A stretch of 64,000 bases of DNA from an uncultured Gammaproteobacteria bacterium. GTDB taxonomy: Bacteria > Patescibacteriota > Patescibacteriia > VMEV01 > CAZAJQ01. The stretch covers positions 78,014-142,013 of the forward strand of contig CAZAJQ010000001.1 in assembly GCA_964485795.1 (NCBI GenBank), given 5' to 3'. Of the stretch, positions 7,012 to 44,002 are shown piece by piece. The stretch's first letter is position 1, and each line of letters starts with the position of its first letter. The translations under genes were made by a program, and so were the position numbers. A model generated the notes under the pieces. The model saw nothing but the letters and a program-made list of their open reading frames with translations. It had not been told where the DNA came from and made no database searches.

Positions 7012-7014
7012 ATT

Positions 7015-7908: not shown

Positions 7909-8002
7909 ACCATATTTTCCCTCTTTTTTTGCTTTTTATGAAATCCCGTGAGATGATTCTTTTCAAGACCTTTCATCTTATTTTTTTCAATTTTCAAAAC
8001 CT

Positions 8003-17654: not shown

Positions 17655-17915
17655 TCATGAAGGAACTTTTATTGCCTTCACTCCATAGAGAATCAACCCT
17701 TCCTCGCTTTTTGAAATCTTTCTCTTCATCAATGTTACCTCCTGCCCGATTTTCACGTCTTCACCATCCGCAACCGTAACCATGATCCGCTCATGGGAAT
17801 CGGCCAGCTCAATCAAGGCAACCGTATACGGCGTTTCGGCAACCATTCCGCTTGGAGCTGAAAAGAGTTTTGAAAACGTCAAAACCTTTCCTTTTTTCCC
17901 GAGGAAAGCCCGCAT
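17655..17915 (-). CDS. DUF35-type OB-fold protein, the thiolase/HMG-CoA synthase partner. It lacks the usual N-terminal Zn ribbon.
   Basis: MRAFLGKKGKVLTFSKLF...PYTVALIELADSHERIMVTVADGEDVKIGQEVTL matches the DUF35 OB-fold. The ORF-track extension to 18047 contains no Cys and overlaps the repeat element, so the ATG at 17913-17915 is preferred. Confidence 0.65.
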   Translation of the reverse strand: MRAFLGKKGKVLTFSKLFSAPSGMVAETPYTVALIELADSHERIMVTVADGEDVKIGQEVTLMKRKISKSEEGLILYGVKAIKVPS

Positions 17916-17990
17916 TTTTTTATGCTGCCGCCATACAAAAGGCGGGGTATGAAAAAGTGTCATAGAAAAAATACGTAATGGTATGAATTT

Positions 17991-18260
17991 CCTCCCCTTG
18001 GACAAGGGGAGGTGGCCGAAGGCCGGAGGGGTGAGCTTCGTGAACATGGCGTTTACCGTGTCCGAAGCGGAGGGGTGAGCTTCGTGAACATGGCGTTTAC
18101 CGTGTCCGAAGCGAAGGGGTGAGCTCCGCGAAAATGGAGCTTACCGTGTCCGAGCCGGAGGCCTGGCTCTGGCAGGGGGGTGCTTCATGAGTAAGTGCCT
18201 ATTCAATGTTCCCGCCCCACCCCTCTGCCCTTCGGGCATCTCCCCTTGTCCAAGGGGAGA
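17991..18260. repeat. composite repeat element: a 22-nt hairpin CCTCCCCTTGGACAAGGGGAGG (17991-18012), a 3 x 44-bp tandem direct repeat (18025-18156; copies 1 and 2 identical, copy 3 diverged), and an inverted copy of the hairpin TCTCCCCTTGTCCAAGGGGAGA (18239-18260)
   Basis: Read directly from the sequence. Unit: GGAGGGGTGAGCTTCGTGAACATGGCGTTTACCGTGTCCGAAGC. Confidence 0.85.
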
Positions 18261-18270
18261 ATACGCAACG

Positions 18271-19416
18271 TTATACCTTACCCAAAAGATGCATCACACA
18301 TGTCGCGCCGCTGCCGCCCACATTATGCGTCAATGCATATTTCACGTCCGGAGCCTGCCGCTTCCCCGCCTGCCCTCGAAGCTGCCATGCGGCTTCCGCG
18401 ATCTGTTTCACGCCGGTGGCGCCGACCGGATGACCGCACGCTTTCAAACCTCCGGACGTATTGAACGCCGGCTTCATATCGGAATGATTCATCATTTTCA
18501 TAAGCAACGCGCCACCTTCTCCTTTGTTTGCAAACCCGATATCCTCAAGCGCCATAAGACCCGCAATGGAAAAACAATCATGCACTTCGACAAGATCAAT
18601 GTCCGCCGGCTTCAAATTCGCGGTAGCGAATATTTTACGGCTGGCTTCTTGCGTTGATTTCAGACCGATCAAAGTTTTTCTGCCCGATAGCGAAAGCGTA
18701 TCGCAGGCGACTTCACTTGCGACTATGCAAACATCATTATCGGTTTTTCGCGCTTCCTCTGCCGACAATATCACGGCGCCCGCTCCGTCTGAAATCGGAG
18801 AGCACTCAAGCAAGGTCAAAGGGTCTGCGATCATCGAGCTTTCCAAAACGTCGTTAACTGAAATTTCTTTTTGAAACTGCGCCAACGGATTTTTCGCACC
18901 ATTCCGATGCGAAATGATCGAAGCTGCGGCCAGCTGCTCGCGTGTCGTTCCAAACGTTTCCATATGCTCCCTTGCCATCATGGCGTACAAAGCCGGAAAA
19001 GTAGCGCCGGCGAGACGTTCTTCGCTTGACGCGGCCTGCATCAAAAATGAAGCGACGGTCTCGGCCGAAAAGTCCGTCATCTTCTCCACGCCCACTACCA
19101 ACACTTTTTTATACTGCTTCGCCTCAATCGAAGTAACCGCCCGATGCACCGCAAGTCCTCCGGACGCGCAGGCTCCTTCGACGCGAAAACATGGGATGTT
19201 CACGCCGTATTGTTCACAGAGCAAGGCTCCCGCATGACTTTGCATGGCCGTTTCTCCGCAAAGCATCGTTCCGACGAAACACGCCTCAATCTCTGAAACG
19301 TTCATGCCGGAATCAAGCAACGCCAAATCAACGGCTTCTCGAAAAAGATCTTCAAAGCTTTTGTCCCAAATTTCTCCAAAACGCGTCATGCCGATGCCGG
19401 AGATGATCGTGTACAT
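18271..19416 (-). CDS. archaeal-type acetoacetyl-CoA thiolase (thiolase-like/SCP-x family)
   Basis: 381 aa; GMTRFGE...CASGG...NTSGGL...GHPVGATG thiolase signatures. Adjacent to HMGCS and DUF35 as in archaea. Confidence 0.9.
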   Translation of the reverse strand: MYTIISGIGMTRFGEIWDKSFEDLFREAVDLALLDSGMNVSEIEACFVGTMLCGETAMQSHAGALLCEQYGVNIPCFRVEGACASGGLAVHRAVTSIEAKQYKKVLVVGVEKMTDFSAETVASFLMQAASSEERLAGATFPALYAMMAREHMETFGTTREQLAAASIISHRNGAKNPLAQFQKEISVNDVLESSMIADPLTLLECSPISDGAGAVILSAEEARKTDNDVCIVASEVACDTLSLSGRKTLIGLKSTQEASRKIFATANLKPADIDLVEVHDCFSIAGLMALEDIGFANKGEGGALLMKMMNHSDMKPAFNTSGGLKACGHPVGATGVKQIAEAAWQLRGQAGKRQAPDVKYALTHNVGGSGATCVMHLLGKV

Positions 19417-19424
19417 AGGGGAAG

Positions 19425-19540
19425 AGGTAGGAGTAAGTAGTCAATTCTCAGCTCTCAGGAGTAAGTTCTCAGTGCGTAAGCATAACTGCAAAACGTCGAT
19501 TCGGCAGCTGAGTACTGAGAACTGACTGCTGACGCACTTG
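19425..19540. repeat. GAGTAAG/CTCAG(T) heptamer-palindrome repeat, family member 2 of 3
   Basis: ...gagtaagtagtcaattctcagctctcaggagtaagttctcagtgcgtaag...gctgagtactgagaactgactgctgacgcacttg, between thiolase and HMGCS. Confidence 0.6.
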
Positions 19541-19544
19541 TTCC

Positions 19545-20582
19545 CTAACGCGACAATTTGCCGCGCATTTTTACGTACTGCGGATATGAAACGTATTTTT
19601 TCTCTCGAATCTGCTCCTGCAACGTATGATTTCTCTTGAAATTTTCAATATTCTTCGTGACTTCAAAAATAAAACTGTCCGAGCCCGAGCCCGAGCCGTA
19701 GGAAGTCATGAGGATTGATTCCCCCGCTTTCGCATGATCCAAAACGTTCGCAAGGCCGAGCATGCTGCATGCCGAGTAGGTATTTCCTATCTCGGATACG
19801 ATCATCCCCGCACGCAGCTGCTTTTCGGAAACTCCGAGCGTTTTTGCGGCCATTTGGGGAAATTTACCGTTGGGCATATGAAAAATCACATGATCGAAAT
19901 CGGAAACGCTTTTACCGTTTTTTTTCAAAATCTTTTTGGTCGCGGATACGACATGCTCGAAGTATGCGGGTTCACCGGTGAATCTCCCTCCGTGAGCGGG
20001 GTACTCGGACTTTGGCGCTCGCCAAAAATCGGGCGTATCGGAAGCCATGGAAAACGTATCTTTCATCTCGCAGATGATTTCATCTTTTTTATTTCCAAAA
20101 AGAAACGCGGCCGCGCCGCTCGCCGCCGTATACTCGAGCATATCCCCCGGTGCTCCTTGAGCCGTGTCAGCGCCTACGGCAAAGCCATACGCTATCATAT
20201 TCGAGCGAACCATTGAGGCAACGATTTGCATGGCCGCGGTTCCGGCTTTGCACGCGAATTCCAAGTCTGCGGAAAAATAATCTCGCATGCCGAGAGCCTG
20301 TCCCACGAGCGTTCCGCTTGGCTTCACGGCGTACGGATGACTTTCGGAGCCGATGAACATCGCTCCGATATCTGCGGACGATATCGAAACGCTTTCCAAA
20401 GCGTATATGGCCGCGCTCAAAGCCAAAGTCACCGTATCTTCGTCCGCGGACGCTACGGCTTTTTCTCGTAAAAGAAGTCCTCTCTTGATGTTTTCAGGAT
20501 CTTTCCCGTGCGCTTGGGCTATTTCATCAGCGGTAATGCGAAACATGGGAATAAAAGATCCATAGGTGATGATACCGGACAT
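19545..20582 (-). CDS. hydroxymethylglutaryl-CoA synthase (short archaeal type)
   Basis: 345 aa; active-site Cys context DLEFACKAGT; HMGCS/FabH fold motifs. Confidence 0.9.
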   Translation of the reverse strand: MSGIITYGSFIPMFRITADEIAQAHGKDPENIKRGLLLREKAVASADEDTVTLALSAAIYALESVSISSADIGAMFIGSESHPYAVKPSGTLVGQALGMRDYFSADLEFACKAGTAAMQIVASMVRSNMIAYGFAVGADTAQGAPGDMLEYTAASGAAAFLFGNKKDEIICEMKDTFSMASDTPDFWRAPKSEYPAHGGRFTGEPAYFEHVVSATKKILKKNGKSVSDFDHVIFHMPNGKFPQMAAKTLGVSEKQLRAGMIVSEIGNTYSACSMLGLANVLDHAKAGESILMTSYGSGSGSDSFIFEVTKNIENFKRNHTLQEQIREKKYVSYPQYVKMRGKLSR

Positions 20583-20680
20583 GAACGTGAAAATTTATCT
20601 TTTGATAAACAGCCTGTCCCGCATATCGGTGAACGAAGGATGACAAGGATAATTCCGGACTTATGGCACTGATATCTTCG

Positions 20681-21829
20681 CTACGAACGTTCACGGTAAC
20701 TCTTATGCACACGAGCCAAATCCTGCGAGGCGAGGCATGCAAGCAGAGATATTTCGCCGGCCAAGACGGCGCCGGCGATGATTTCAACGAAGGCGTGATG
20801 AGCGCTGCCAGGGTTACCCTCGTCGATGGTGATTCCCATCATGGCCAGCGATTCACTTTGCTTGGGAAGTCCGGTGCCTCCGCCCACGACCCCGCATACC
20901 ACGCTCGGCAAAAAAACATTGACATAGACGCCGCCGTCCTTTTCCTTCTCGACGGATGTGATCCCGAGACTTCCTTCCACGACATGCGCCATATCCTGCC
21001 CCGTCGCCAAAAAAATCGCGGAAATGATGTTTGCATAATGCGCATTCATGGCCATCGAACCGGCGGCAAGCGATCCGGCAACGATCTTGCTCTGATACAC
21101 GTCAAAAAATTCATCGGCATCGGTCTTGAGCACGTTTTTCAAAACATCCGCCGTCAATACGACCTCGGCGTTCACGGAATATCCGCGGCCTTCAAGCATA
21201 TGGGTGAATGCCGCCTTTTTATCGCTGCAATAATTTCCCGACAATGAGCGACATCGCACTTTTGTTTCGGGTTCGATGATGTGAGAAATGAGATGGTCGC
21301 ACGCGATCACCGCCATATTCATCCCCATGGCATCTTTGGGATCAAAGGTGAATTTCACAAAAACATTTCTCCCGATCTGCTTGCAAAAAATGCCGACGAG
21401 CTCCAAAAATCGGCTCGTCTTGCGAATTTCAGCGCCGAATCTCTCTTTGTTTTTCATGATAAAATCCATGAAATCCTTTCCCTGCCGCTGATGCAGCACT
21501 CGAAAAACCGGAGCGCGCGTGATGCCGACATGATGCGCCCTCACAGTCGCTCCTCCGGACAAGGTGATCGCTTTGCACCCGCGATTGACACTGGCGACGA
21601 GGCACCCCTCGGTCGTGGACAGCGTCAATATCCTTTCGTCGTTGACGATGTCTCCGTTGATTTTCAGCGGCCCGGCGATGCCGAGCGGAACGCTCACCGC
21701 GCCGATCATATTTTCGCAGTTCTTTGTCGCGCATCCGAGATACTCGTCGCTTCCGGCAAGAATCTTCGCGGCACTCACGCGACCGTACGATAATATTTTT
21801 TCTAATTTTTCACGGCTCTTTTCCGACAT
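20681..21829 (-). CDS. HMG-CoA reductase, class I-like catalytic domain
   Basis: 382 aa; ENMIGAVSVPLGIAGPL and DAMGMNM motifs. Confidence 0.9.
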   Translation of the reverse strand: MSEKSREKLEKILSYGRVSAAKILAGSDEYLGCATKNCENMIGAVSVPLGIAGPLKINGDIVNDERILTLSTTEGCLVASVNRGCKAITLSGGATVRAHHVGITRAPVFRVLHQRQGKDFMDFIMKNKERFGAEIRKTSRFLELVGIFCKQIGRNVFVKFTFDPKDAMGMNMAVIACDHLISHIIEPETKVRCRSLSGNYCSDKKAAFTHMLEGRGYSVNAEVVLTADVLKNVLKTDADEFFDVYQSKIVAGSLAAGSMAMNAHYANIISAIFLATGQDMAHVVEGSLGITSVEKEKDGGVYVNVFLPSVVCGVVGGGTGLPKQSESLAMMGITIDEGNPGSAHHAFVEIIAGAVLAGEISLLACLASQDLARVHKSYRERS

Positions 21830-22839
21830 AGGTGATGGCTGTAAAGCTGTTGACTTCCGAGACTTTTGAGATCTTTTGATCCGGTGGCGAACATGGTGAT
21901 TTTGAGTTCCAAAATCAATCGTTCGATGGTTTTCATGACTTGTTCATGGGATATTACCGCGCTTTGCAAAAAAGGCAAGGCGCAAGACGCATACTTGGCT
22001 CCGAGCGCAATGCATTTGGCGATGTCAAGCCCGGTGCGCACTCCCCCTCCGGCTATCACGTCCACACCGCTCACCCTTGACGCCTCAAGCACGGCAATGG
22101 GAGTCGGGATTCCGAAATTTCGAAACGTCTCTCCGATATCGCGATAATCGCTCCGTCGCTTGCCTTCGATCCACGCCCATGAAGTTCCGCCGCTTCCGGA
22201 AACATCGATGATCGAGATGCCTATATCTTTTAAACGTTTCACCGTTGATCGTGAAATCCCGGCACCGACTTCTTTCGCCATGAAGGGAATATCGAGGTGA
22301 GCGACAACGCGCTCCATTTTTTCCAGCAAACCAAAATAATTTTTATCTCCTTCAAACTGAACGGCTTCTTGCAAAGGGTTCAGATGAAAACACAGAGCAT
22401 CGGCTTTGACAATATCAATGATTTTCTTTATATCTTCGAGTGTCACTCCATAGTTGAGCTGCACCGCTCCGAGATTGGCGAAAACGGGAATGGTGGGTGC
22501 GAATTTTCTCACGACCGCAAAGGTTTTCTTTGCGTCTTCTTTTTCCAGCATGATGCGCTGCGATCCCACGCCCATGGGCAATCTCAGCTTTTCAGCCGCT
22601 TGCGCCAAATTCGCGTTGATCGTCTCCCCGTGTTGTGTTCCTCCGGTCATGGATCCTATAATAAGGGGGGCGGAAATTTTTTTTCCCAAAAAAATCGTTT
22701 CCGCGGAGATTTCGTCAAAATTTATTTCCGGAAGCGCATTGTTTTCAAAAAAAAGATCATCAAAATATCGCTGCTTGGTATCAACTTCTTCCGAAAGACA
22801 AATATCAATATGATGTTTTTTCCTTTCCGATAACGACAT
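21802..22839 (-). CDS. fni: type 2 isopentenyl-diphosphate isomerase (FMN-dependent IDI-2)
   Basis: Begins MSLSERKKHHIDICLSEEV, with GSMTGG and GGVRTGLD TIM-barrel motifs. The ORF-track N-terminal 231 aa (to 23532) are a shadow of mvk on the other strand, so the start is set at 22839. The 3' end overlaps the HMGR start by 28 nt. Confidence 0.85.
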   Translation of the reverse strand: MSLSERKKHHIDICLSEEVDTKQRYFDDLFFENNALPEINFDEISAETIFLGKKISAPLIIGSMTGGTQHGETINANLAQAAEKLRLPMGVGSQRIMLEKEDAKKTFAVVRKFAPTIPVFANLGAVQLNYGVTLEDIKKIIDIVKADALCFHLNPLQEAVQFEGDKNYFGLLEKMERVVAHLDIPFMAKEVGAGISRSTVKRLKDIGISIIDVSGSGGTSWAWIEGKRRSDYRDIGETFRNFGIPTPIAVLEASRVSGVDVIAGGGVRTGLDIAKCIALGAKYASCALPFLQSAVISHEQVMKTIERLILELKITMFATGSKDLKSLGSQQLYSHHLCRKRAVKN

Positions 22840-23760
22840 ATGGCTCTTGCACTCGCCCCCACAAAACTCATTCTCATCGGTGAACATGCGGTTGTGTACG
22901 GATATCCGGGACTTTCTTTGCCTTTGCCGCTTCTCACCACCGCCGAAGTGCTCCATCATGGTGAGCCCGACATTCATCTGGAAGCGAATTTCAAACTTGC
23001 GGAAGAAGTGGTCGACTGGCTCCACAAGCTCCTCGACCCGCTTTTCGATATTTTTCCAAATAAAAACAATCTCCTCGTCCGTCTTCATGTGACGGCCGAG
23101 GCAGGTTCGGGGATGGGCGTATCCGCAAGCGTTGCCGTGGCTTTGATACGCGCATTCTTTGATTATTATAATAAAAAACTGGACCAAAAGACACTTTTTG
23201 ATCTGGCTCGGCAGATGGAAACCGTCTCCCACGGAAAACCAAGCGGAATCGATCATACCACGATCATTGAGAATGAACCACTTTTTTTCAAAAAAATCAA
23301 CGGAAAGCTTTCCATTCGAAAAATTCCAAAACTTTTCAATCCCATGATTTTCAAACATTGCGCCATACTCTTCAGCGGAAAACCTATCGAAAGCACGAAA
23401 ACGATGGTTGAGCTCGTGAAAACGCGTCATGAACGCGATGAAAACTTGGTCAATGAAACGTTTGAGAACATCGAAAATCTCACCTATGCGCTTTTTACCA
23501 GCCTCATGATTTCCGACGAAACGCTTTTTCACGAGACGCTCGCTTACGCCGGAGATCAGCTCACGGCATTGGGAGTCGTCTCACCGACCGCTTCCCGCTT
23601 GCGAAAAAAGCTTGAAACGCTTGGAGTCGCTTCCAAAATTTCCGGAGCCGGAGGAGCATGCGCCGGATCGGGTATCCTTCTCTGCCATCATGAAGATCAA
23701 AACATCATCACGGATTTCGCGAACCGAAACGATATCAAGTTTTGGACTCCATGGGCTTGA
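22840..23760 (+). CDS. mvk: mevalonate kinase (GHMP kinase)
   Basis: APTKLILIGEHAVVYG, SGMGVSAS and KISGAGGGA motifs. Its ATG directly abuts the IDI-2 start codon on the other strand (CAT|ATG). Confidence 0.9.
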   Translation: MALALAPTKLILIGEHAVVYGYPGLSLPLPLLTTAEVLHHGEPDIHLEANFKLAEEVVDWLHKLLDPLFDIFPNKNNLLVRLHVTAEAGSGMGVSASVAVALIRAFFDYYNKKLDQKTLFDLARQMETVSHGKPSGIDHTTIIENEPLFFKKINGKLSIRKIPKLFNPMIFKHCAILFSGKPIESTKTMVELVKTRHERDENLVNETFENIENLTYALFTSLMISDETLFHETLAYAGDQLTALGVVSPTASRLRKKLETLGVASKISGAGGACAGSGILLCHHEDQNIITDFANRNDIKFWTPWA

Positions 23761-24547
23761 TGAGACTTCCGATGCACGGTGCTCCTTTCAACGCCGAAAA
23801 AAATCGTTCCGGTTCATTGCCGTTGATGATGAGCGTTTGCACTCCAACGTCGGCGAGCGCGAGAGCGGTTTCAAGTTTGTGTCGCATGCCGCCGGTCACA
23901 TCCGCGACCGTCGGTTCATGAATAAAGCGAAAAATCTCTTTCTGATTTTCTCTCGTGATGACGGGAACGACCTCGCCGCGGTCATCCGTGATCCCGTCCC
24001 TATCCGAAAGCATCAGAATGGTTTTGACGGGATATTTTTTCGTCTCCGTCCATGATTGTGCCAAATATTCAAGCGTGATTTCATTTGAATTGATGCTCAC
24101 TCCGACGGTTTTATCCACGATGACATCCCCGTAGACGACGGGCAGAAAACCTTTTTCCAAAGCTCCGCAAAGAACATCATCAAACAATGCGACGATATTT
24201 TTTTTGTCGTTCACGGTAAACCCGGAAGGAGCGAAAGACATGGCCGGAATATTCGCGAGAAGCAGCTCTTTCATCACCAGCCGATTGAGTCGAGCGACCG
24301 CATCATGCACAAGACAAGCCCCGAGTCTCCCGTACGCGTCGTGAAAACCGTTCGCGGTTCCAAACTTTTTTGCGGCCGGATGACCGAAAGACCCGGCTCC
24401 ATGACCCAAAACAAGAGAAACGTCGGGATAAGCCTTCATAAACCGCGACAATACACCGGCCAAATTTCGAACGGATTCTTCTCGAAACACTTCGACGTCT
24501 GATTTGTCCGTGATGACGCTTCCTCCCAGTTTAATAAGAATCATCAT
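23735..24547 (-). CDS. isopentenyl phosphate kinase (amino-acid kinase family)
   Basis: LIKLGGSVITDK and GHGAGSFGH. 270 aa. The 3' end overlaps the mvk 3' end convergently by 26 nt. Confidence 0.85.
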   Translation of the reverse strand: MMILIKLGGSVITDKSDVEVFREESVRNLAGVLSRFMKAYPDVSLVLGHGAGSFGHPAAKKFGTANGFHDAYGRLGACLVHDAVARLNRLVMKELLLANIPAMSFAPSGFTVNDKKNIVALFDDVLCGALEKGFLPVVYGDVIVDKTVGVSINSNEITLEYLAQSWTETKKYPVKTILMLSDRDGITDDRGEVVPVITRENQKEIFRFIHEPTVADVTGGMRHKLETALALADVGVQTLIINGNEPERFFSALKGAPCIGSLIKPMESKT

Positions 24548-24555
24548 ACAAAATT

Positions 24556-25575
24556 TTATTCGTTGACGGCTTCCAAAACGATTTTCGCTCCTTCCGCCGG
24601 CTTATTTTCGATCAGGGTAATCACCCCCGGCACCGACGCAAGCTCATTCTTGACGTTCAAAACGCAATCGCCTTCGCAAATGACGTGAACATTGGATCCG
24701 GCGTCAATCGTCGCATAGGCGAGTATTCCTTTTTCACGAAGCTCCCTGACGCGATCGAGCACTCTCATGGTGGAATCGTTCCAATAAAATATCGGGGGCT
24801 TTTGCGTCATGGCGATGCAATGCATGCAGACGCTGTCTTCTTCGATCACGGTTCCCAAAGCGCGAATGTCTTTTTTTTCTATCGCCTCCCGGCATCTTCG
24901 TAATCGATCCGGTATCGCGGATATCCTCGAGGGAAAGTGCGGACTGGTCTCGGCGGCTCGGTGTCCGTCGCTTGAAGACACTTTCTTTTTATCCACGGCG
25001 ACCACGGCCACGATATCGGCCAGATCCCAATGCTCATGCGTCGCGATTTACACGGAATGACAAGTATCGCGGCAATAATCCATGCAAGATTCCACAAAAC
25101 CGCCGTGACTGGATCGCATGGCGGACACCGAGCCGCCGAGACGAATGAGCTCGGAAAGTCTTTTCCTGTCATTCACGTATTCATCCAGTCCGTACGCTTG
25201 ACACAAAGCGAGCGTCAAAGCCGCAAATCCCGAGGCCGATGATGCGATACCGACATCGGAGGGGAAATTGTTTTCCGAACGGATATTCGCGAATCTCAAA
25301 TCGTTTCCCAACGCTCGAATTCGACCGATATGCTCAAACATCAAACGCTGCTTGATATCGCCTTCGTTTTTGACCCGTTGAAATTCTTTCCCGAAAAATT
25401 TCACCCTCACGTCATCGTCAATAGATTTTTCCATGATTTCAACGCTCGTCACCGTGAAACAATTCGAAAGGGTCATGGAAATGGTATTGGTATAAGGCAA
25501 AAAAATGGTCTTGTCTTTTTGACCCCAATATTTGATAAACGCGATATTTGCCGGTGCCCATGCCGTCGCTTTCAT
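24556..25575 (-). pseudogene. diphospho-/phospho-mevalonate decarboxylase homologue (GHMP family) interrupted by one in-frame TAA at 25048-25050. Seen as two same-frame ORFs, 175 aa and 151 aa.
   Basis: N-terminal part APANIAFIKYWGQKD...SSASGFAAL...RLGGSVSAMRS. C-terminal part ...KKVSSSDGHR...PPIFYWNDSTMRV...YATIDAGSNVHVIC. Both ORFs share a frame (25575, 25050 and 25011 are all 0 mod 3). The 12 codons between them (IATHEHWDLADI) have no stop. Confidence 0.8.
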
Positions 25576-25584
25576 ATGTGCTTT

Positions 25585-26655
25585 CTAAACGTCTCGATGT
25601 ATCATAAAATCAGCCAAATCTTTGAAAAATCGAAACCCTTCTTCCGAAAAAAATTTTGGATTCAAGTGCTCGATCGCTTCTTTGTGAAGTTTTTTCGCCA
25701 ACCTTTTCGAATACTGCAGCGAACCGGTTTCTTCCACGATCTTTTTGACCTTTCGGGCATCGTCAGCCGTAATATCCGGATTTCCCAAAGTCTTTTCAAA
25801 AATTTTTCGTTGCGACGGCGAGCAATTTTGCAAAGCCTTGACGATGAGCAGGGTTCTTTTTCCCTGTCTGAGGTCGGAAAGCACGCTTTTTCCGATTTTT
25901 TTTTCGTCTCCGAACAGTCCCAAAATATCATCCTGCAATTGAAACGCCACACCCACCGGAATCGCGTATGCGGTGAGATTTTCCATCACTTTTCGCGGCG
26001 CGTTCGCAAGCATGGCTCCGATATGCAGAGGCGCTTCCACCGAATACTTTCCCGTCTTGTACGTATGCACTTTCATGACATGATTGCGTGTGGCATCTTC
26101 ACGCATTTCAAGAAAAATGTCCAGCATTTGACCGATATTCACTTCTTTGATCACGTCCAAAAGATGCAGCATAAGATGATTTTTCACGTCCGAAGAAAAT
26201 TTCGTCTTGAGCACCGCCTCTTTTGCCACTTCGGAAAGCAAAATGCCGGCGATGATGCCCATGGAATTTCCGAAATGTTCTCGATTTTTGGCCGCGTAAT
26301 TTTTCCGATTCATCTTGCTGTACCGATAATGTATCGTGGGACATCCGCGTCGTTTCGTGTCCCGATCCATGATATCGTCATGAATCAATAAAAAACTGTG
26401 GATCAGCTCCATAGCCATCGCGACTTGAAAAACGTCTTCATCGTGTCCCTTACCTCCGCAGGCGAAGTATCCGAAATACACCAAAGCCCCGCGCATCTTT
26501 TTTCCTTTTCCCACGCAAATATCCTTGATATGGCGAAAAAGCTCGGCTCCCAGTGGTGTAATGAGACGCGCTTCTTCCATCTTTTCATTCAAATACGTCT
26601 CAAGATCGGCATCCATCTTTTTTTTGAAATCTGCCAATTGATCGGGTATCTTCAT
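25585..26655 (-). CDS. polyprenyl diphosphate synthase (FPP/GGPP synthase family)
   Basis: LIHDDIMD and FQLQDDILG aspartate-rich motifs. 356 aa. Confidence 0.9.
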   Translation of the reverse strand: MKIPDQLADFKKKMDADLETYLNEKMEEARLITPLGAELFRHIKDICVGKGKKMRGALVYFGYFACGGKGHDEDVFQVAMAMELIHSFLLIHDDIMDRDTKRRGCPTIHYRYSKMNRKNYAAKNREHFGNSMGIIAGILLSEVAKEAVLKTKFSSDVKNHLMLHLLDVIKEVNIGQMLDIFLEMREDATRNHVMKVHTYKTGKYSVEAPLHIGAMLANAPRKVMENLTAYAIPVGVAFQLQDDILGLFGDEKKIGKSVLSDLRQGKRTLLIVKALQNCSPSQRKIFEKTLGNPDITADDARKVKKIVEETGSLQYSKRLAKKLHKEAIEHLNPKFFSEEGFRFFKDLADFMIHRDV

Positions 26656-26680
26656 AGACTACAAAACTCCATTGAAACAC

Positions 26681-26707
26681 AAAAAACCCTTTACCACGGG
26701 TAAAGGG
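26681..26707 (-). terminator. Rho-independent terminator for the surface-protein gene 26715..28148
   Basis: CCCTTTACC, a 3-nt loop, GGTAAAGGG. The minus-strand hairpin is followed by U6. Confidence 0.65.
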
Positions 26708-26714
26708 TGAAACA

Positions 26715-28148
26715 TTATTGTAAATATTTCAAGTCCTCTTCCAGAGAATCGTCATCCAGCTCGCTTTTCTTTTTTCCTTTTTTCGAGGGTGATTTTTTGA
26801 TATTCGCTTCTGTCTTGGCTTTCTCTTCGTCATTTTCTTCCTTTTGAGGAATCTTTTCTTTCACTTCCTGATCCGTATCTTCGGACGATTCAGTTTTTTG
26901 CATATCATCTTCTCTCCCCTTCTTTTTGAAAAAATCATAAGGGATGGTCCTTTTTTCTTTTGCCAAAAAAAGCAAATACAGGGACAAAAGGAACAGCCCG
27001 AAGAAAAAAAGGATAATCAGCCACAAAATCCAATTGTCGCCATCGAAGAAGCTGATGGATATCGGATACTTGGCTTCGATCTTATTGCCTTCCTTGTCAA
27101 AGCCGGAAAGCGTCACCGTATATTCGCCGTATTTGGGAAAACGATGATCGATTTCCTGGCCGTAAAACACGCCGGTCTTGTCTCCAAAGTCCCATTCATG
27201 TGTCAATTCCGGTATATCCAAAATGTCCTCCGCCAAAGAAACGAAACGATACTCTTTCCACGATTTTTTGCTCACCTTCATGGCGTCAACGGAAAAAAGC
27301 TGAAGCGTTTCCGATGTGAAGGTCTCGGAAATGCTGTTCGAATCTTGTGAACTTTCGGAAGGCGTCACCGAATTTTCTTCGACGATTTGCGCTTCGGAAA
27401 GTTTTGGCGCGGTCTCTTGAACGGGTTTTTGAGTTTCCGGCGGTGTTTTCGGAAGAGGTTTTTCCTCCGCGGGCTGCGAAACGGGTGTCGGTTCCGCCGG
27501 AAGCTCGCTTTCGGCATTCGGATCGCAAGCATCTCCCTTGCCGTCTCCGTCACTGTCCTTTTGATCAGGATTTTTCAGAAGCAAACAATTATCTTTACCG
27601 TCCATGACTCCATCTCCATCCGTATCGGGATTGTTTGGGTTTGAACCGAAATTTTTTTCTTGCGCGTCCGGAATGCCGTCATTGTCGTTATCGTCGTCTT
27701 CGCCGTCCGGAATGCCGTCTTTGTCGGTATCCGGAAGCGGAACGAAAACGCTTGATATGGCGACATTGTTGCTGGCATCTTCGTCCCTTGGATCGGCGTT
27801 GCGAATCTCGACGCGGATATTGAAACTTCCGCTGGGAGCCACCCAGTCCACATACACTTCATCCGCAAAACCGTTCGCCCGCACGGTCACCACTTGCGAC
27901 GCGCCGATGACGATATTGTCGCCTTGATAAAAAACCACCATGGCGGCCGTGTCTTTTTTCCCGAGATTGTGAATGCGCGCGTAAAGGCGGATTTTTTGTC
28001 CGGCGACGATTTTTGATTCCGAAAAAAATATGTCATTGGAATATATGGCGAGATCATACTCCAGCGCCTGCGCAAAACTCCCGGTCACGACAAAAAATGA
28101 TGAGAAAAGCATCATTCCCAGCGCCGCCATGAATCGTTTCGAAAACAT
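26715..28148 (-). CDS. membrane-anchored surface protein: CARDB-like domain, thrombospondin type 3 Ca-binding repeats, PKD-like domain, C-terminal TM and a charged cytoplasmic tail
   Basis: Signal peptide. [22 protein letters not shown] and [17 protein letters not shown]3 repeats. WDFGDKTG...YTVTL PKD motif. [25 protein letters not shown] followed by a K/E/D-rich tail. Confidence 0.75.
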
Positions 28149-28233
28149 AGGTATTGTATTTTTATTTTGACATCATCAGTATAGCATGCGAAATTTTCTT
28201 CAAGAAACGGAAGTCGATGTAATATCGCAAAAT

Positions 28234-29673
28234 TCACTGACGTTGAGCTTCAAAAAAATTTCCGACGGCAAGCACGGTCGCTTCTCCCAGTCTCGGTCCG
28301 ATGATTTGCATGCCGATGGGAAGACCGCCCGAATCTTTGCCGCAAGGAAGCGACAGTGCGCAGACTCCGGCCACCGATGCGGGACTCAAAAAAATGTCGG
28401 CCAGATACATTTGCAAAGGATCCGCGGCTTTTTCTCCGATGGAAAAAGGAGCGAACGGAGATACCGGAGTGATCAAAACATCGACTTGTTTGAAAATGTC
28501 GTCCATTTCTTTTTTTATCAATGTGCGCACGGCCTGCGCTTTTTTGTAATACGCGTCATAATATCCGGCGGACAGAGCGTAGGTTCCGATCATGATTCGC
28601 CGCTTCACTTCGTCGGGAAATCCTATCGCCCGCGTTTTCGCATACGTTTCCAAAAGATCTTTCCCCTCTTTTTGCACGCCATACCGCATGCCGTCGAGCC
28701 GCGCCAAATTCGCGCTGTCTTCGCAAGGAACCACGACATAGTACACGGATATCGCATATTCGGTGAGAGGCAAAGACACGTCCACGATTTTCGCACCCGC
28801 TTTTTGAAAAACTCGGATCGACTCCGCAATAGCATCCGAAATTTCCTTATCGAGAGTTTTTGAAAAATATTCTTTTGGCACGCCGATCGTCAGCTCCGAC
28901 GCGGGAAAGTCGCTTGCGAGAAGCATTTCGGTATAACGAGGCACGATTTCGTCATAGGTCGTCGCGTCTTTCGCATCATAACCCGCGATGGTTTCCATGA
29001 TCGCCGCGAGATCCCATACGGATTTGGCCATCGGACCGGCGGTATCCAGAGACGAAGCCATCGGCATCAATCCATAGCGAGAAACGCGTCCGTAGCTGAC
29101 CTTGAGCCCCGCAATCCCGCAAAAAGCGGCGGGTTGCCGTATCGATCCTCCGGTATCTTCGGCGATGGCGTACATCGCCATATCGGCCGCCACGCTTGCG
29201 GCCGCTCCACCGCTGGATCCTCCGGCGACGCGGCGCACATCATACGGATTTTTCACCGGACCATAGTGCGAATTTTCATTGGAAGCGCCATGACCGAAAG
29301 CGTCGCAGTTGGTTTTTCCCAGAATCACGCCGCCTTTTTCCTGGATTTTGGCTATGACCGAAGCCGAGTACGGCGCTATATAATCGTCCAAAATCTTCGC
29401 CGCACCCGTCGAACGCATATTCTCGACGAGAATGGCATCCTTCACGCTGTACGGGATACCGGTCAAAACGCCCTGTGCGCCGGCGGCGATCAGCGCATCG
29501 GCTTTTTTCGCCTGACGAAGCGCCTCCTTTTCCGAAACCGTGATAAACGCGTTGAGTTCGTCGTTTTTTTCACGAATTCTCCGCAAACACGCCTCGGTCA
29601 ATTCAATCGAAGAAATCTCTTTTTTCGCCAAAAGTGCGGAAGCTTTGCGTAACGTGAGATCAAAAAGTTTCAT
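28234..29673 (-). CDS. gatA: Asp/Glu-tRNA amidotransferase subunit A
   Basis: Amidase signature [13 protein letters not shown]. 479 aa. Confidence 0.95.
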
Positions 29674-29760
29674 AATTCATTCTTTCAAAAGGATGCTGTT
29701 GTTGATTTTTTAAACGTCTTCTCATGTTCAATGAAGTCTCTTGAAACATTTCGGCAAATC

Positions 29761-30078
29761 CTATGCTTCAAATACCCCCTTCACCTTCAAATACCCGTTT
29801 TTTTCATGTGGAAAATTTTTCTTGATGGCGGCGACCACGGCTTCAAGACACGGCAGCGCCTCATCATCTCGTAAACGATTTTTTATGCCGGTCACTTGCG
29901 ATGTGGGTTCGATGTTTTTCGTCGGAACTTCATCGAGCTTTTTCACAAACGTCAGAATCTCGGAAAGCTGTTTTTGAAACATCTCCACCTCGTCTGAAGA
30001 AAGCTCTATTCTCGCGAGCTGAGCAATGTGAATCACTTCATCGTAAGAAAGCTGCATAGGTTTATGGTATAAACTCAA
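29761..30078 (-). CDS. gatC: Asp/Glu-tRNA amidotransferase subunit C
   Basis: 105 aa with SYDEVIHIAQLARIELSSDEVE, typical of GatC. Confidence 0.85.
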   Translation of the reverse strand: MSLYHKPMQLSYDEVIHIAQLARIELSSDEVEMFQKQLSEILTFVKKLDEVPTKNIEPTSQVTGIKNRLRDDEALPCLEAVVAAIKKNFPHEKNGYLKVKGVFEA

Positions 30079-30165
30079 ACTGAGAGTATGGTATCAGAGA
30101 ACCGGACGGGATAAAAGTCGATATCGGTTTTTCGGCATACGTCGGCGAATACCGCCGGCTCATGA

Positions 30166-32259
<2,094 letters not shown>

Positions 32260-32270
32260 TCATAGCAAAA

Positions 32271-32370
32271 TACTGAGAACTGAGTACTGAGTACTGAGTA
32301 CTGAGCACTGAGTACTGAGCACTGAGAACTGAGCACTGAGTACTGAGAACTGAGTACTCTGTTCTCAGCG
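32271..32370. repeat. (TACTGAG)n heptanucleotide array, ~14 units with A/C/T variation, ending in an inverted unit. Family member 3 of 3.
   Basis: tactgagaactgagtactgagtactgagtactgagcactgag...tactctgttctcag, between the ligA start and the end of the pilus-operon tail gene. Confidence 0.85.
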
Positions 32371-32383
32371 AGAGCCAAACGCG

Positions 32384-33115
32384 CTATGGCAAACCGCTCC
32401 ATGGAGTCGTAGCGGGCACGGTAACACGCAAAGCCTTCTGCGAATTTTTATACACTCCTTTACTCGTCATCGTCACAGGAACCGGAACGCTCAGCTCATT
32501 GCCCGACGGCGCACCGTCGGCGGCGTAAAACCTGACATGCAGATCAAGAGCGTCATCGTTTTTCGCTCGAATGCGGATTTGATACGCTGAATCGGCGGAC
32601 AATGCGCTCTCCACGATGTCATTGCACGGCGTTACGCCTCCGCAAAAATAAGTAGTGACGCTTTCGGCCGCAAAGCTGACACCGTCCCAAGTCCGCACCG
32701 TGACTTCAAGCTGCACGCCGATATTCCATGAAATCCGAAACGATTCGATGCCGGCCGGGACTCCGGTAACGCTTCCGGGAACATACACCTCCACTATTTC
32801 AAATTCATCTTCCGCGATTGCGTCAATGCCTATATCCGATGCCTGATCGATGACATCACGCTCCCATCTCACTTGGTTGCCGTACTCACCGCTTCCGTTC
32901 AATTCCGCCGCACCTTTCCCCTCCTTTCGAAGTCCGTACAAACCGGTTTCAATGGCCGCGTCCGCTCCGTAATAAGCCAAAAAAGCGTTTTCTATTTTTT
33001 TCGTAATTTGGGTTTGGCGCACAATGATTTCAGACACGATGACGCCGCCGGTAAGAATCAAGGATGTTATGAGAAGTGACGCTATGAGTATCACTCCTCG
33101 TTGATTTTGGCGCAT
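32384..33115 (-). CDS. hypothetical protein with an N-terminal TM; last gene of the pilus operon, possibly a minor pilin
   Basis: MRQNQRGVILIASLLITSLILTGG N-terminal hydrophobic segment. 243 aa. No canonical prepilin motif. Confidence 0.5.
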   Translation of the reverse strand: MRQNQRGVILIASLLITSLILTGGVIVSEIIVRQTQITKKIENAFLAYYGADAAIETGLYGLRKEGKGAAELNGSGEYGNQVRWERDVIDQASDIGIDAIAEDEFEIVEVYVPGSVTGVPAGIESFRISWNIGVQLEVTVRTWDGVSFAAESVTTYFCGGVTPCNDIVESALSADSAYQIRIRAKNDDALDLHVRFYAADGAPSGNELSVPVPVTMTSKGVYKNSQKALRVTVPATTPWSGLP

Positions 33116-33174
33116 AACTCTGTGAAAAAAAATTCTTTTTTGAAAAAATAATGAAATTTCAAAAACGCGGCTCC

Positions 33175-33816
33175 TTACCGCTCATACACCCGAGACGAAA
33201 TCGTGTTTTGCAAAAACAACGTATGATCGCCTTTTGCCGTTTGAAACGCGGCCGTGATCGTCACTTCGGGTTGCCGGTTTGAAGCATACGCTCCCCCGCT
33301 TCTTTCGAAAGGATTTTGCTGCGGCATGATGAAAAAACGCAGCGACGGCAATCGTACCCCTCGGGACGTCGCCGCATTCCAGCTGACGCCCTGATCATAG
33401 CTCACTTCCAGACACGGTGAACTGGAAAGATCGGGACATACCGAATCTCCGCTCCGATACACCACCGTGCTTCCCTCGTCATCAACGAGCGCCAGCTCCG
33501 ATGCTGGCAAGGTCAATCCCCCCGAATACCCGGAATAGGCATAGTCGATCGTATGCGTCTTGATATCGTCGATGAAACGGCCAAACACATTCTGCGCATC
33601 GGCCTGCAAACGAGCAACATTCAGCGTCTTATTTTGCGCACCCAAGGATCGTATCATGATCCCGGTCACCGTCACGATGAGAAAGGAAAAAATGGACATG
33701 GAAACGATCACCTCAACCAACGTGAATCCCGCGCCGTTGACAAACGACGTCTTTTTTTTATAACAAAAATTTTTATCAAATCTCCACATACATTGACCAT
33801 TCAAAACATATTTCAT
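33175..33816 (-). CDS. type IV prepilin-like protein (minor pilin)
   Basis: Leader ...KKKTSFVNGAG then FTLVEVIVSMSIFSFLIV, the class III signal with G/FTLVE. Confidence 0.75.
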   Translation of the reverse strand: MKYVLNGQCMWRFDKNFCYKKKTSFVNGAGFTLVEVIVSMSIFSFLIVTVTGIMIRSLGAQNKTLNVARLQADAQNVFGRFIDDIKTHTIDYAYSGYSGGLTLPASELALVDDEGSTVVYRSGDSVCPDLSSSPCLEVSYDQGVSWNAATSRGVRLPSLRFFIMPQQNPFERSGGAYASNRQPEVTITAAFQTAKGDHTLFLQNTISSRVYER

Positions 33817-33942
33817 TCATGTACTCCGACGTAACGCTTTCGAAAAAATTTTTATCTCCTTCACTTCCAAGCCTTTGCTCCGGCTTCGAAACGTTAGGGT
33901 CTGCCCTGAAGGAGAGCTCCCGTTGGTCGCACCCTTCAGGAT

Positions 33943-34530
33943 TTACCGCCAATGATAGAGTTCCCCGATCGCCATCACGCTGCGTTCCTTTCCCTTTTCC
34001 GTCCATCGCACCTCGGAGGTGATTTTTTTGCGAAAATCCGTGCCTTCGGGATCGATGGTGATAAGCCGCCGAAAAACGGTTGCGTTTCCGGTTGCGCCGG
34101 CCGTACTTTGCCGATATACGCCTTGATCGCGATACACCACGGCTGCGGCATCGGAAAAACCGCTCGGCGCAAAATCCAAAGTCCAGCTCCCCGCCTCCGG
34201 GTCAAACGCGGGAATGGCCGTGGTATCCGCAATCCCGGACATACCCGTATCCCACGGCGATTGAGAAAGCCAATTGGAGTCGCGAATATTTCTCACGACT
34301 TCCACGCCTTCCCATGCCAATTGCGAACCGATCATCGAAGACTGCAGCTCCCCGCTCTGACCAAGCGTTGACAATACGAGGCTGAAGCTTCCCAGCATCC
34401 CGAGGCCGATGATCGTGAAAGCCACGATGGTCTCCATGAGCCCCTGGCCTCGGGGCGATGCACGGAAGGTATGCTTATTTTTGAATAATCGCTTCATAAC
34501 GTTTTTCGAATTCTCATTCAAGTACGGCAT
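33943..34530 (-). CDS. pilin-like protein with an atypical prepilin N-terminus
   Basis: ...ASPRGQG then LMETIVAFTIIGLGMLGS: conserved Glu+5 and a hydrophobic helix after a Gly cleavage context. Confidence 0.6.
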   Translation of the reverse strand: MPYLNENSKNVMKRLFKNKHTFRASPRGQGLMETIVAFTIIGLGMLGSFSLVLSTLGQSGELQSSMIGSQLAWEGVEVVRNIRDSNWLSQSPWDTGMSGIADTTAIPAFDPEAGSWTLDFAPSGFSDAAAVVYRDQGVYRQSTAGATGNATVFRRLITIDPEGTDFRKKITSEVRWTEKGKERSVMAIGELYHWR

Positions 34531-34531
34531 A

Positions 34532-35467
34532 TCAAACGAACGAAGAAAAAAAACTCAATATTCTTTTCCTCGGTTTCATTTTTTTCGACTTTAAAATCAT
34601 ATGATCGACAATGGCGCCGGAAATATCTGTTTCGGAAAATTCTTGCGCTCTGGGAAAATAGCAAGGCATATTGACTTCCGCTATATACGGCTGATCGTCT
34701 TGATCGATGAGTATATCCACCCCTGCAAATTCATATCCCAAAACATTTGCGGCTTTCACCGCCAATTTTTCAACCTTGGATCCAAACTTTTTCACTGAAA
34801 TGGACAGATCATCTCCCCTATTGCTACGAAAATCATCTTTGAGACGAACATATTCAATACTCGAAACAACTTTATTGCCCAAAACGATCAGACGGGCATG
34901 TTCCTTGTAATGCAAAAATTTTCTCAGAATATATTTGCCGTTTTGTTTCGATAAATAATCGCAAACCGAAATCAACGACTCGAAGGAATCGATCTTCATG
35001 ACACCGATGCCATGCGCTCCGCCGATGGCTTTCACAATGATCGGAAATCCATTGAGCGCTCGAACGTATTTTTTCAGAAGTGCCGTGTCGGTCGTGATAG
35101 AAAAAACAGTCCGGATAATCGGCAATCCGCACTTTTCGTGAAAGAGAGCGGAGCCGACAAAATAATCCCGTCTCGCCATGCAATCGGTGAAATTCCTATA
35201 TAACGTGATCACTTCGGAGTTGATCAAAAGCTTTTCCAAGAGTGAGGAAGCATATCCGGAAGCAATTCTGTAAAGGCCGTCTTTACCGGTGAGATGCAAT
35301 CTTTGCGAAAAATCAAAATGATTCGCGTCAAGCGTTTCAACTTTCAATCCGCGACTCTCAGCCGATTGCTTGAGATAATCATATGAAGGATCATCCTGCA
35401 TGACGATAAGAAAAATTCTTTCCAAAATATTTTTCATATCAAATATGAATTGTGGCGATGCGGCCAA
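34532..35467 (-). CDS. ATP-grasp ligase, RimK/alpha-L-glutamate-ligase-like, embedded in the pilus operon
   Basis: GFPIIVKAIGGAHGIGV, ARLIVLGNKVV, FAGVDIL and YIAEVN motifs. Confidence 0.8.
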   Translation of the reverse strand: MAASPQFIFDMKNILERIFLIVMQDDPSYDYLKQSAESRGLKVETLDANHFDFSQRLHLTGKDGLYRIASGYASSLLEKLLINSEVITLYRNFTDCMARRDYFVGSALFHEKCGLPIIRTVFSITTDTALLKKYVRALNGFPIIVKAIGGAHGIGVMKIDSFESLISVCDYLSKQNGKYILRKFLHYKEHARLIVLGNKVVSSIEYVRLKDDFRSNRGDDLSISVKKFGSKVEKLAVKAANVLGYEFAGVDILIDQDDQPYIAEVNMPCYFPRAQEFSETDISGAIVDHMILKSKKMKPRKRILSFFSSFV

Positions 35468-35508
35468 GAGAGCAAACAGATGGTCAGCCTTTTCGCCGGC
35501 TTTTGCAT

Positions 35509-36054
35509 CTACTCCACGGAAATCTGTCCCGTAAGCCGATGAATGCGAACTTCTTTGTTTTTTCCGCTTTTTTCATCGCGTATGTGAATCACGGCCACAT
35601 CTTCGGAGGCGCATTCCCCGCTTGCGCTTGATTTGAAACAGATAAAAGGCTTGGGCGGTTTAAACGTCACATGGAGCGGAATAAACGGATCGGCGGAAAC
35701 GATTCGAACGTTTTTGGGGGTGAAAAAAACTTCCGTGTCCATGGCCTCCTGCGCGCCGTCATAATGAAGATTTCCGTTGACGTCGGCAAAAAGCCGATAC
35801 TCGCACGGAGGCGCGCCGCAAGCTCCGATGAAAAAACCGTATCCCCCTTCGGGAACTGCGCCCAGATACGGCTCACCCGTAATCGCAAACGCCTGCGCTT
35901 TTCGAATCGCGGACGCGAGCGCTTCGACGCTCAGATCCAGATCCCGTGAAGCGCCGCGATAATTGATAACCACGATGGTGGATAATATCCCGATAATGGT
36001 GATCGTCACGATCATTTCCAGCAGCGTAAATCCGCGCTCGTTGCTTATGTTCAT
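35509..36054 (-). CDS. type IV pilin/pseudopilin (GspG/PilE-like)
   Basis: MNISNERG then FTLLEMIVTITIIGILSTIVVINY. Confidence 0.85.
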   Translation of the reverse strand: MNISNERGFTLLEMIVTITIIGILSTIVVINYRGASRDLDLSVEALASAIRKAQAFAITGEPYLGAVPEGGYGFFIGACGAPPCEYRLFADVNGNLHYDGAQEAMDTEVFFTPKNVRIVSADPFIPLHVTFKPPKPFICFKSSASGECASEDVAVIHIRDEKSGKNKEVRIHRLTGQISVE

Positions 36055-36129
36055 AAAACGAAAAAGGCTAAAAAAATCGTCAATACTGTCGCAGGTTCGC
36101 GGTAATGTTCCCCCTGCACGATCGACATC

Positions 36130-37098
36130 TCAATCGCCGAACAGCAACCATGATATATCTTTCATGCTGTTCGCCACGTCGATCCAAGCATCCCCGTACA
36201 AAAGCATAAATCCCGTTCCGACGGCCAAAAAAGTCCCCATCGGAACTTCGGATTTCATGCCTTTCTTCTTCATGGCAAGCAAAACGACGCATACCAAAGA
36301 TCCGATCACATAGGAGATCAGCAAGGCAGCCAAAACTTTCGGCCAGGAAAGCATGACACCCATCAGCGCGCCCATGCGTATATCCCCGCCCCCCACCCAT
36401 GCGCCTCCGGAAACGGCATACTGCAGGAAAAAAAATCCGCCGGCGACGATTGCCGCCAAAAGCATTCTTTGCCACGATATTCCAAACCATGCATTGCAGA
36501 AAAAAACAAAAAATATCGAAGGAATCGTGATGATATCCGGCAAAAGAAAATATTTGAGATCAAAGAGAAAAAGCGCCAGAAGAATCATGACGAAAACGAC
36601 ATTTCTCAAAGCATAGAGAAACTCAAAAAAACCGAAACCGTATTTTTGCGTGATGAAATCGGCGGTTGCAAATGAATCCAAGGAAAAATAAGAAAATGGA
36701 GCGAAGCATGCGGCCACAAAAACAAAACCGGTCAATAATTCTGCGGCGGGATATTGCAAAGATATGTTTTTTTTACAGGTGCGACATTTTCCCCGAAGAA
36801 GGATATAGCTGACAATGGGGATAAGATCATAAGCATAAAGATCATGCCGGCAATTCGGACAATGCGACCTTCCCCAAACGAAATTTTCCCCCCGATACAT
36901 CCTCTCAATCAAAACATTCAAAAAGCTTCCAAAAAACAACCCGATGATAAACACAAAAATCACGAGACTCATAATCTTTATGAAAAAAAATTCATATTCC
37001 TTTCCAGTATAGAGGCTTTGGGGGATAAAAAAAATACCCGCCTGCCATGCCGCTTCCCTGAGGTAAGCGGCATATCGGCCAGCGGTATTTTTTTCCAT
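36130..37098 (-). CDS. pilD: prepilin peptidase (A24 family). An alternative start at 36972 (MSLVIFVF...) would give 281 aa.
   Basis: GSFLNVLIER, CPNCRHDL...C..C Zn-binding tetrad, GGGDIRMGALMG. Multiple TM helices. Confidence 0.85.
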   Translation of the reverse strand: MEKNTAGRYAAYLREAAWQAGIFFIPQSLYTGKEYEFFFIKIMSLVIFVFIIGLFFGSFLNVLIERMYRGENFVWGRSHCPNCRHDLYAYDLIPIVSYILLRGKCRTCKKNISLQYPAAELLTGFVFVAACFAPFSYFSLDSFATADFITQKYGFGFFEFLYALRNVVFVMILLALFLFDLKYFLLPDIITIPSIFFVFFCNAWFGISWQRMLLAAIVAGGFFFLQYAVSGGAWVGGGDIRMGALMGVMLSWPKVLAALLISYVIGSLVCVVLLAMKKKGMKSEVPMGTFLAVGTGFMLLYGDAWIDVANSMKDISWLLFGD

Positions 37099-37158
37099 GA
37101 ATGATCAACATGGAGTCGGAAGAATATTCATATTTCAGACCATCCCAAGCTGTGTAAC

Positions 37159-37647
37159 TTATATCGTTCCTCCCGGACTGGCTGTGCGAACCCCGGTCGG
37201 CAAACCTCCGGTACCGGATTCCAAGTAAAACTTGATGGTATAGGATGTTCCGGTGGAAACAAATGCGTAATCGCACACGGCCGTTGATGCGTCCGTACAT
37301 ACCGAAGCGGCTCCCGATTTACTCGGATCGCGAGGCACGCCTTGCATATACAAACTGCTCCCCGTGCACGTAGCCTCAAACCCAACATCCGTCAGACACA
37401 GGGCGGTTCCGCTCCCCAATGCCAGAGGACTGCCACCGTCGGACGGGTAGCTGTTGGCTTGCAAATAATACAGCTCCAAGGCTCCGCGGATATTGGCGAT
37501 ATTGGCCACTCGAGACGAATCCCTCGCCTTGGTCCTCGCGGTACCAAGCGCCAATACGGCCAATGTGGAAAGCAAACCGATGATGGACACCACGACCAAA
37601 AGTTCGATCAATGTGAAGCCCCGCGAAGAGTCTTTTTGTGTATGCAT
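37159..37647 (-). CDS. pilA: type IV major pilin
   Basis: MHTQKDSSRG then FTLIELLVVVSIIGLLSTLAVLALG. 162 aa; C-terminal Cys pair. Confidence 0.85.
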   Translation of the reverse strand: MHTQKDSSRGFTLIELLVVVSIIGLLSTLAVLALGTARTKARDSSRVANIANIRGALELYYLQANSYPSDGGSPLALGSGTALCLTDVGFEATCTGSSLYMQGVPRDPSKSGAASVCTDASTAVCDYAFVSTGTSYTIKFYLESGTGGLPTGVRTASPGGTI

Positions 37648-37686
37648 ACGACAAAAAATTAGAAAAAGTTAGAAGTGAATATTAAA

Positions 37687-38160: not shown

Positions 38161-38229
38161 AGGATGAAAAAATAAAAAAGAAACAAATGTATGTAGCCTC
38201 TCAAAAACGGTTGATGCGTTTTTCAAAGG

Positions 38230-39426: not shown

Positions 39427-39436
39427 ACATTCAAGA

Positions 39437-41161: not shown

Positions 41162-41167
41162 AGTTGA

Positions 41168-41458: not shown

Positions 41459-41482
41459 ACTTTCAGATTTTGGAAGCGTGAT

Positions 41483-42064: not shown

Positions 42065-42094
42065 AAATTCTTCTTTTGAACCTCACAATGACTA

Positions 42095-42805: not shown

Positions 42806-42851
42806 GCTGATGTTTGTTTATGATTCTCCAAAAAAAACTTCAAAATCGTTG

Positions 42852-43964: not shown

Positions 43965-44002
43965 ACAAAAACGATGTTCGGAGTATTGCGCCGTATGCAA
44001 AG

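Follow-up and report, generated by a model that had tools for sequence, protein, structure and literature searches.

An in-frame stop codon in the mevalonate pathway decarboxylase gene of a CPR bacterium is missing from three further assemblies of its population

The mevalonate pathway decarboxylase gene of a CPR ("Parcubacteria group") bacterium is interrupted by an in-frame TAA in the window (the whole stretch of DNA analysed here, 64 kb in length). From comparison with other assemblies of the same population, this stop is probably a local assembly or consensus error in one MAG which creates a false pseudogene. Several observations favour this reading, among them that three other assemblies have CAA at this codon, that the two NCBI assemblies differ from each other only in clusters, that Gln is the majority residue of the family at this column, and that the gene carries no other lesion. 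Taken at face value, the stop would imply either the loss of the sole route to isoprenoid precursors in a CPR bacterium or readthrough of UAA. Neither pathway loss nor readthrough is a safe conclusion, because the gene is intact in the three other assemblies. The stop is ordinary either way, and involves no readthrough, recoding or fixed loss of the pathway.

The minus-strand frame covering 24553-25575 contains one internal stop only. Its translation runs from MKATAW to CRDTCHSV, is broken by the stop, and resumes with IATHEHWDLADIVAVVAVDKKKVSSSDG to finish with EAVNE and the terminal stop. The decarboxylase ORF opens at an ATG at 25575 and reaches the internal TAA (25050-25048, codon 176) after 175 codons; the same frame then runs on with no further stop to a terminal TAA at 24558-24556. 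The two ORFs listed for this region, 25048..25575 (175 aa) and 24556..25011 (151 aa), had been predicted to share one frame, and the minus-strand translation bears this out, the shorter ORF being the tail of the decarboxylase frame read from an internal GTG at 25011. The joined product, with X at the stop, is 339 aa long and not about 326 aa as first estimated. The gene is made up of the following parts:

25051..25575, minus strand, decarboxylase codons 1-175, an MVD-like N-terminal GHMP domain, identical to the public intact gene except at codons 170 and 175
25048..25050, minus strand, the in-frame TAA at codon 176, which is CAA (Gln) in the other three assemblies
24556..25047, minus strand, decarboxylase codons 177-339 and the terminal TAA, an MDD_C domain carrying the invariant K197 and the DAG-motif Asp D291

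Homology flanks the stop on both sides. In the joined 339-aa sequence, the Pfam family MVD-like_N (PF22700) matches residues 7-168 (E 1.4e-36, 126 bits, cut-off 27) and MDD_C (PF18376) matches residues 188-312 (E 9.6e-21, 74.9 bits, cut-off 23.2), and the internal stop is located in the linker between these two domains. The joined sequence also matches the diphosphomevalonate decarboxylase family TIGR01240 (209.7 bits, cut-off 171.35). The original prediction of a GHMP-family decarboxylase whose homology continues through the stop is confirmed by these matches.

There is no second lesion in the gene, and every invariant residue of the family is kept. K197 and D291 (in the DAG motif) are each invariant in 120 of 120 homologues and both are present here, downstream of the stop. 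The conserved Asp is catalytic and, in both DMD and PMD, a Lys on the beta9-alpha8 loop contacts the ATP gamma-phosphate (PMC9254496). The 175-aa product lacks the invariant K197 and D291 and would therefore be inactive. The decarboxylase is predicted to be an ordinary, functional-looking mevalonate 5-phosphate/diphosphate decarboxylase.

The gene lies inside a mevalonate cluster that is mostly on the minus strand. Family matches of the neighbouring genes support both the predicted operon context and the statement that the rest of the operon is intact:

25585..26655, minus strand, polyprenyl diphosphate synthase, immediately upstream of the decarboxylase (PF00348, E 5.5e-57)
24556..25575, minus strand, decarboxylase (Pfam, TIGR01240)
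23735..24547, minus strand, isopentenyl phosphate kinase (IPK), immediately downstream of the decarboxylase (NF040647, 187 bits, cut-off 120; AA_kinase)
22840..23760, plus strand, mevalonate kinase, inverted in the operon (TIGR00549, 150.8 bits, just under the cut-off of 163; GHMP_kinases_N)
21802..22839, minus strand, type 2 IPP isomerase (TIGR02151, 272 bits over the C-terminal 252 aa; full length of 345 aa according to the gene call of the sibling record)
20681..21829, minus strand, HMG-CoA reductase (PF00368, E 2e-101)
19545..20582, minus strand, HMG-CoA synthase of the archaeal/CPR type (PF08540, PF08541)
18271..19416, minus strand, acetoacetyl-CoA thiolase (Thiolase_N, Thiolase_C)
17655..17963, minus strand, DUF35/OB-fold protein (OB_ChsH2_C), the usual partner of archaeal-type thiolase and HMG-CoA synthase (mapped from the sibling gene call and Pfam)

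The packing of this cluster is tight around the inverted gene. The ATG of the mevalonate kinase gene (22840) abuts the start of the divergent type 2 isomerase gene (22839) with zero spacer, so the promoters of both genes must be inside coding sequence, and the last 26 nt of the mevalonate kinase gene (23735-23760) are shared with the 3' end of the convergent IPK gene. Between the thiolase and DUF35 genes there is a 44-bp tandem repeat of 3.1 copies (18024-18161), which has a hairpin-forming palindrome on each side, CTCCCCTTGGACAAGGGGAG at 18237-18256 and CCTCCCCTTGTCCAAGGGGAGG at about 17990-18011, the two being near-identical. The repeat-plus-palindrome element (17990-18256) resembles a small MITE/REP-type insert, and it has no match in Rfam.

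Mevalonate clusters have already been described in CPR bacteria (Hoshino & Gaucher 2018, PMC6107057), and the operon in the window is a standard example of them. It shares with them the archaeal-type thiolase and HMG-CoA synthase, HMGR-I, the mevalonate kinase, a DPMD/MPD homologue, an IPK in synteny and a linked isoprenyl diphosphate synthase. In that survey IDI-I is the usual isomerase and IDI-II is sparse, whereas the operon in the window has IDI-II. The survey also reports PMVK in CPR; none is seen in the 64-kb window.

The operon is probably of the type that combines PMD with IPK. The closest solved structure to the decarboxylase is that of Anaerolinea thermophila PMD (6N0X, which is AthPMD; PMC9254496), with 218 bits over nearly the full length (residues 2-335); classical diphosphomevalonate decarboxylases reach at most 143 bits. 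Both the catalytic Asp of the DAG motif and the GHMP motifs of AthPMD (PDB 6N0X/6N0Y/6N0Z) are conserved in the window gene; unlike AthPMD, the window copy carries a stop, and a preference for MVA-5-P over MVA-5-PP, or the reverse, is here a prediction from sequence. The classical enzymes, such as Staphylococcus epidermidis MVD (PDB 2HK2), have the same two-domain architecture, and their model TIGR01240 scores above its cut-off, whereas the NCBIfam PMD model NF040704, built on haloarchaeal PMD, reaches 158 bits, far under its cut-off of 475. The classical DMDs are nevertheless more distant than AthPMD, and here an IPK gene is adjacent and the Pfam lists across the 64-kb window contain no phosphomevalonate kinase (PMK). 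The decarboxylase would thus probably be a PMD that works with the adjacent IPK. The closeness of AthPMD, the adjacent IPK and the lack of a PMK in the window make a route from mevalonate kinase to PMD to IPK the most likely one, and the pairing of the decarboxylase gene with an IPK gene is as in the haloarchaea/Chloroflexi-type pathway.

Elsewhere in the window there is a large type IV pilus cluster at about 32000-44000, which includes a PilM-like protein, a T2SSE ATPase, a T2SSF platform protein, a prepilin peptidase and several N_methyl pilins. Separate T4SS_pilin-like genes are found further along, at 51790-54363. Two divergent tRNA genes are present at 62579-62665 (minus strand, 87 nt) and 62935-63026 (plus strand, 92 nt); these lengths indicate types with a long variable arm.

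The comparison with sister genomes that the original prediction proposed can be made with three other assemblies, and in all three codon 176 is CAA. The first is NCBI assembly GCA_016204025.1, in which contig JACQLO010000002.1 ("Parcubacteria group bacterium") carries an intact decarboxylase gene of 339 aa. The window comes from another MAG of the population that this assembly represents, one that is more contiguous. Across window positions 17735-30547 (12,813 aligned bases) the two differ at 25050, 25052 and 25068 only. The change had been described as a single substitution, but three bases differ, and they form a 19-nt patch (25050..25068) of window-specific substitutions:

25068, plus strand C in the window versus T in the public sequence, coding GAT (D170) versus AAT (N)
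25052, plus strand A versus T, coding GTG (V175) versus GAG (E)
25050, plus strand A versus G, coding TAA (stop 176) versus CAA (Q)

The other two are independent run-level assemblies from Logan. A 5.2-kb contig of run SRR12113383 holds the intact 339-aa gene, and a contig of run SRR12113424 holds its first 180 codons; both have N170/E175/Q176 and are otherwise identical to the window. The CAA codon is thus seen in three other assemblies from at least two runs. The reading frame is interrupted in the window copy and uninterrupted in the three sibling assemblies. The intact protein, MBI4117517.1, is found in NCBI, Logan and nr. The truncated products (P0122, 175 aa; P0123, 151 aa), like the window versions of P0125 and P0127, are recorded for one NCBI MAG contig only, which is 210,515 bp long and is the source of the window. 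The truncated product occurs in no Logan assembly, where contigs represent the dominant path per run only, and a minor TAA allele may be present in those runs. Exact 40-mer scans for both alleles in the genome-contig and metagenome-contig collections gave 0 matches. Protein-guided scans of the same collections returned relatives at 39-44% identity only, which say nothing on codon 176 beyond the family alignment.

In the family alignment the stop column holds a sense residue in 120 of 120 homologues, most often Gln (83), then Ser (17) and Glu (8). In solved structures the residue is Pro (S. epidermidis) or Ser (Anaerolinea). The local consensus around the stop is SYAxQIA, and its Tyr aligns with H173, three residues upstream. 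The expectation of a Tyr codon at the stop, one step from TAA, is therefore a mis-registration; the majority residue is Gln, and the change is CAA to TAA, a C-to-T substitution. The other two changed codons behave differently. At codon 170 the D of the window is found in 40 of 120 homologues, against 9 of 120 for the public N, and at codon 175 the V of the window is found in 50 of 120, against 12 of 120 for the public E. In both cases the window residue is the family majority, and the chance that two random errors would both give family-majority residues is about 1 in 81. This is unexpected under random error and hints that the patch may be a real allele.

The window was compared with the sibling NCBI assembly over about 63.3 kb, with Logan contigs overlapping parts of it. 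Window positions 1-5613 match the end of JACQLO010000011.1, and JACQLO010000002.1 begins at position 6230, its compared loci extending from 8271 to 64000; the 616 bases at 5614-6229 are in neither sibling contig. The junction falls in an AT-rich island at 5000-8000 (GC 0.28-0.32, about 0.47 elsewhere), where sibling NCBI and Logan contigs break, with ends at 5613, 6230 and 6309. The island contains two ORFs, 5947-7011 and 7015-7908, the second of which has no Pfam family on record.

Over the compared length there are 10 substitutions and no indels, and the substitutions fall without exception into four clusters:

5603/5608, 5-10 nt from the end of sibling contig 11 (JACQLO010000011.1)
13369/13372/13381, in a 904-aa surface-like protein, window V628/T629/S632 versus public G/K/I
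25050/25052/25068, the decarboxylase patch
63682/63722, with window N157 versus public H in a DUF2975 protein at 63682; 63722 is intergenic

Six gaps between adjacent substitutions are of 41 nt or less, a number that never exceeded three in 1e6 random placements. All nine of the coding differences are non-synonymous, and no substitution stands alone; among random substitutions in these genes, 77% would be expected to be non-synonymous and 3.9% nonsense. A pattern of clusters only, without synonymous changes, fits unselected local consensus errors and is a poor fit to selected polymorphism or ordinary strain divergence. The differences at 5603/5608 are probably a tip error of the sibling assembly. 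Their position 5-10 nt from a contig end indicates that assembly does produce clusters of this kind in this data set. At the cluster in the 904-aa protein, a Logan assembly likewise carries the public version and none carries that of the window; no homologues of this protein usable for a family consensus were found.

Gene conversion or a diversity-generating retroelement would require a donor copy. No donor or template copy was found in the window, with up to 3 mismatches allowed, for either the decarboxylase patch or the patch in the 904-aa protein. As for an origin by template switch at a quasi-palindrome, each allele gives a different short palindrome with 6-bp arms, which by eye cannot be told from chance. 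Cross-mapped reads from a relative were also considered and are implausible as a source of near-identical flanks, because the protein database contains no relative above about 51% protein identity.

The original prediction offered a very recent nonsense mutation, an assembly error or readthrough as explanations of the stop; of these, assembly error is favoured, a recent private allele is its main rival and readthrough is unsupported. What is observed is that the stop is missing from three assemblies of the same population and that the two NCBI assemblies differ in tight clusters only. In the favoured explanation, a 19-nt consensus patch with three wrong bases would have arisen in the MAG, one of these bases converting CAA (Gln176) to TAA. 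The clusters would be assembly or consensus artefacts, for example from poor quality at the ends of reads or from graph paths that were resolved badly, at low coverage. Local errors of this kind occur in MAG scaffolds. The differences seen here resemble them in being short patches that are unsupported elsewhere, clustered and indifferent to codon position, with one at a contig end. They are unlike them in that two of the three residues changed in the decarboxylase are family-majority residues.

It is possible, if somewhat unlikely, that the TAA is instead genuine, a nonsense allele of very recent origin private to the source sample, in which the dominant or a substantial strain would carry a clustered three-base change that truncates the decarboxylase at codon 176. 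The product would lack K197 and Asp291 and the strain would lack that step of IPP synthesis, while the intact allele persists elsewhere. Small-genome CPR symbionts often lose biosynthetic steps. The TAA is present in the deposited NCBI sequence, the residues D170 and V175 are those of the family majority, and the freedom of the gene from other lesions is as expected for a very recent event. This explanation has to accommodate the CAA found in three other assemblies from at least two runs and the lack of a Logan assembly with the truncated product. It also sits poorly with the form of the differences, which are clusters of 2-3 substitutions with none isolated or synonymous, unlike strain divergence, and to place three independent mutations within 19 nt, in genomes that are identical otherwise, would take an unusual multi-nucleotide event. 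An organism unable to complete IPP synthesis, as was first suggested, is not supported, since the gene is intact in sibling assemblies. A fixed pseudogene was likewise rejected: there is one lesion only, and it is absent from GCA_016204025.1 and from two Logan runs.

We consider it improbable that all four clusters are real. They would then belong to a near-clonal CPR population with a process that makes patches of 2-3 substitutions over about 10-40 nt and hardly any changes of a single base. Through one of these patches a subpopulation would just have lost its decarboxylase, and it would then have to obtain isoprenoid precursors from neighbours or a host.

Programmed readthrough, or a reassignment of TAA (for example to Gln), by which the full-length enzyme would still be made, is effectively refuted. 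Homology does continue in frame through the stop, the sibling codon CAA encodes Gln, and TAA is read as Gln in some ciliate nuclear codes. The stop, however, is not conserved even within the population, being CAA in three assemblies. TAA also ends 25 of the 50 large non-overlapping ORFs of the window, including the decarboxylase itself, and the tetranucleotide TAA-A, in which the internal stop sits, is the most frequent terminator context (12 of 50). Long ORFs densely cover the window under the standard table 11, and the folding of the 131 nt that surround and follow the stop does not exceed that of shuffled sequence (z = 0.10). In bacteria, UAA generally leaks less than the other stop codons.

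Hardly credible is a functional split enzyme, in which the N- and C-terminal domains would assemble from polypeptides of 175 aa and 151 aa: the stop does lie in the linker between the two Pfam domains and the in-frame GTG at 25011 does open a 151-aa ORF, but a restart there loses residues 176-188, including the nearly invariant W183, L185 and D187, none of the 120 listed homologues (304-369 aa) is split, and the sibling gene is fused in otherwise identical DNA, which leaves no time for adaptation to a split.

If the stop is, as we favour, a consensus error, the lesson is one of data quality: the clustered consensus differences of a MAG, one of them a false pseudogene, would mislead metabolic reconstructions and pseudogene counts.
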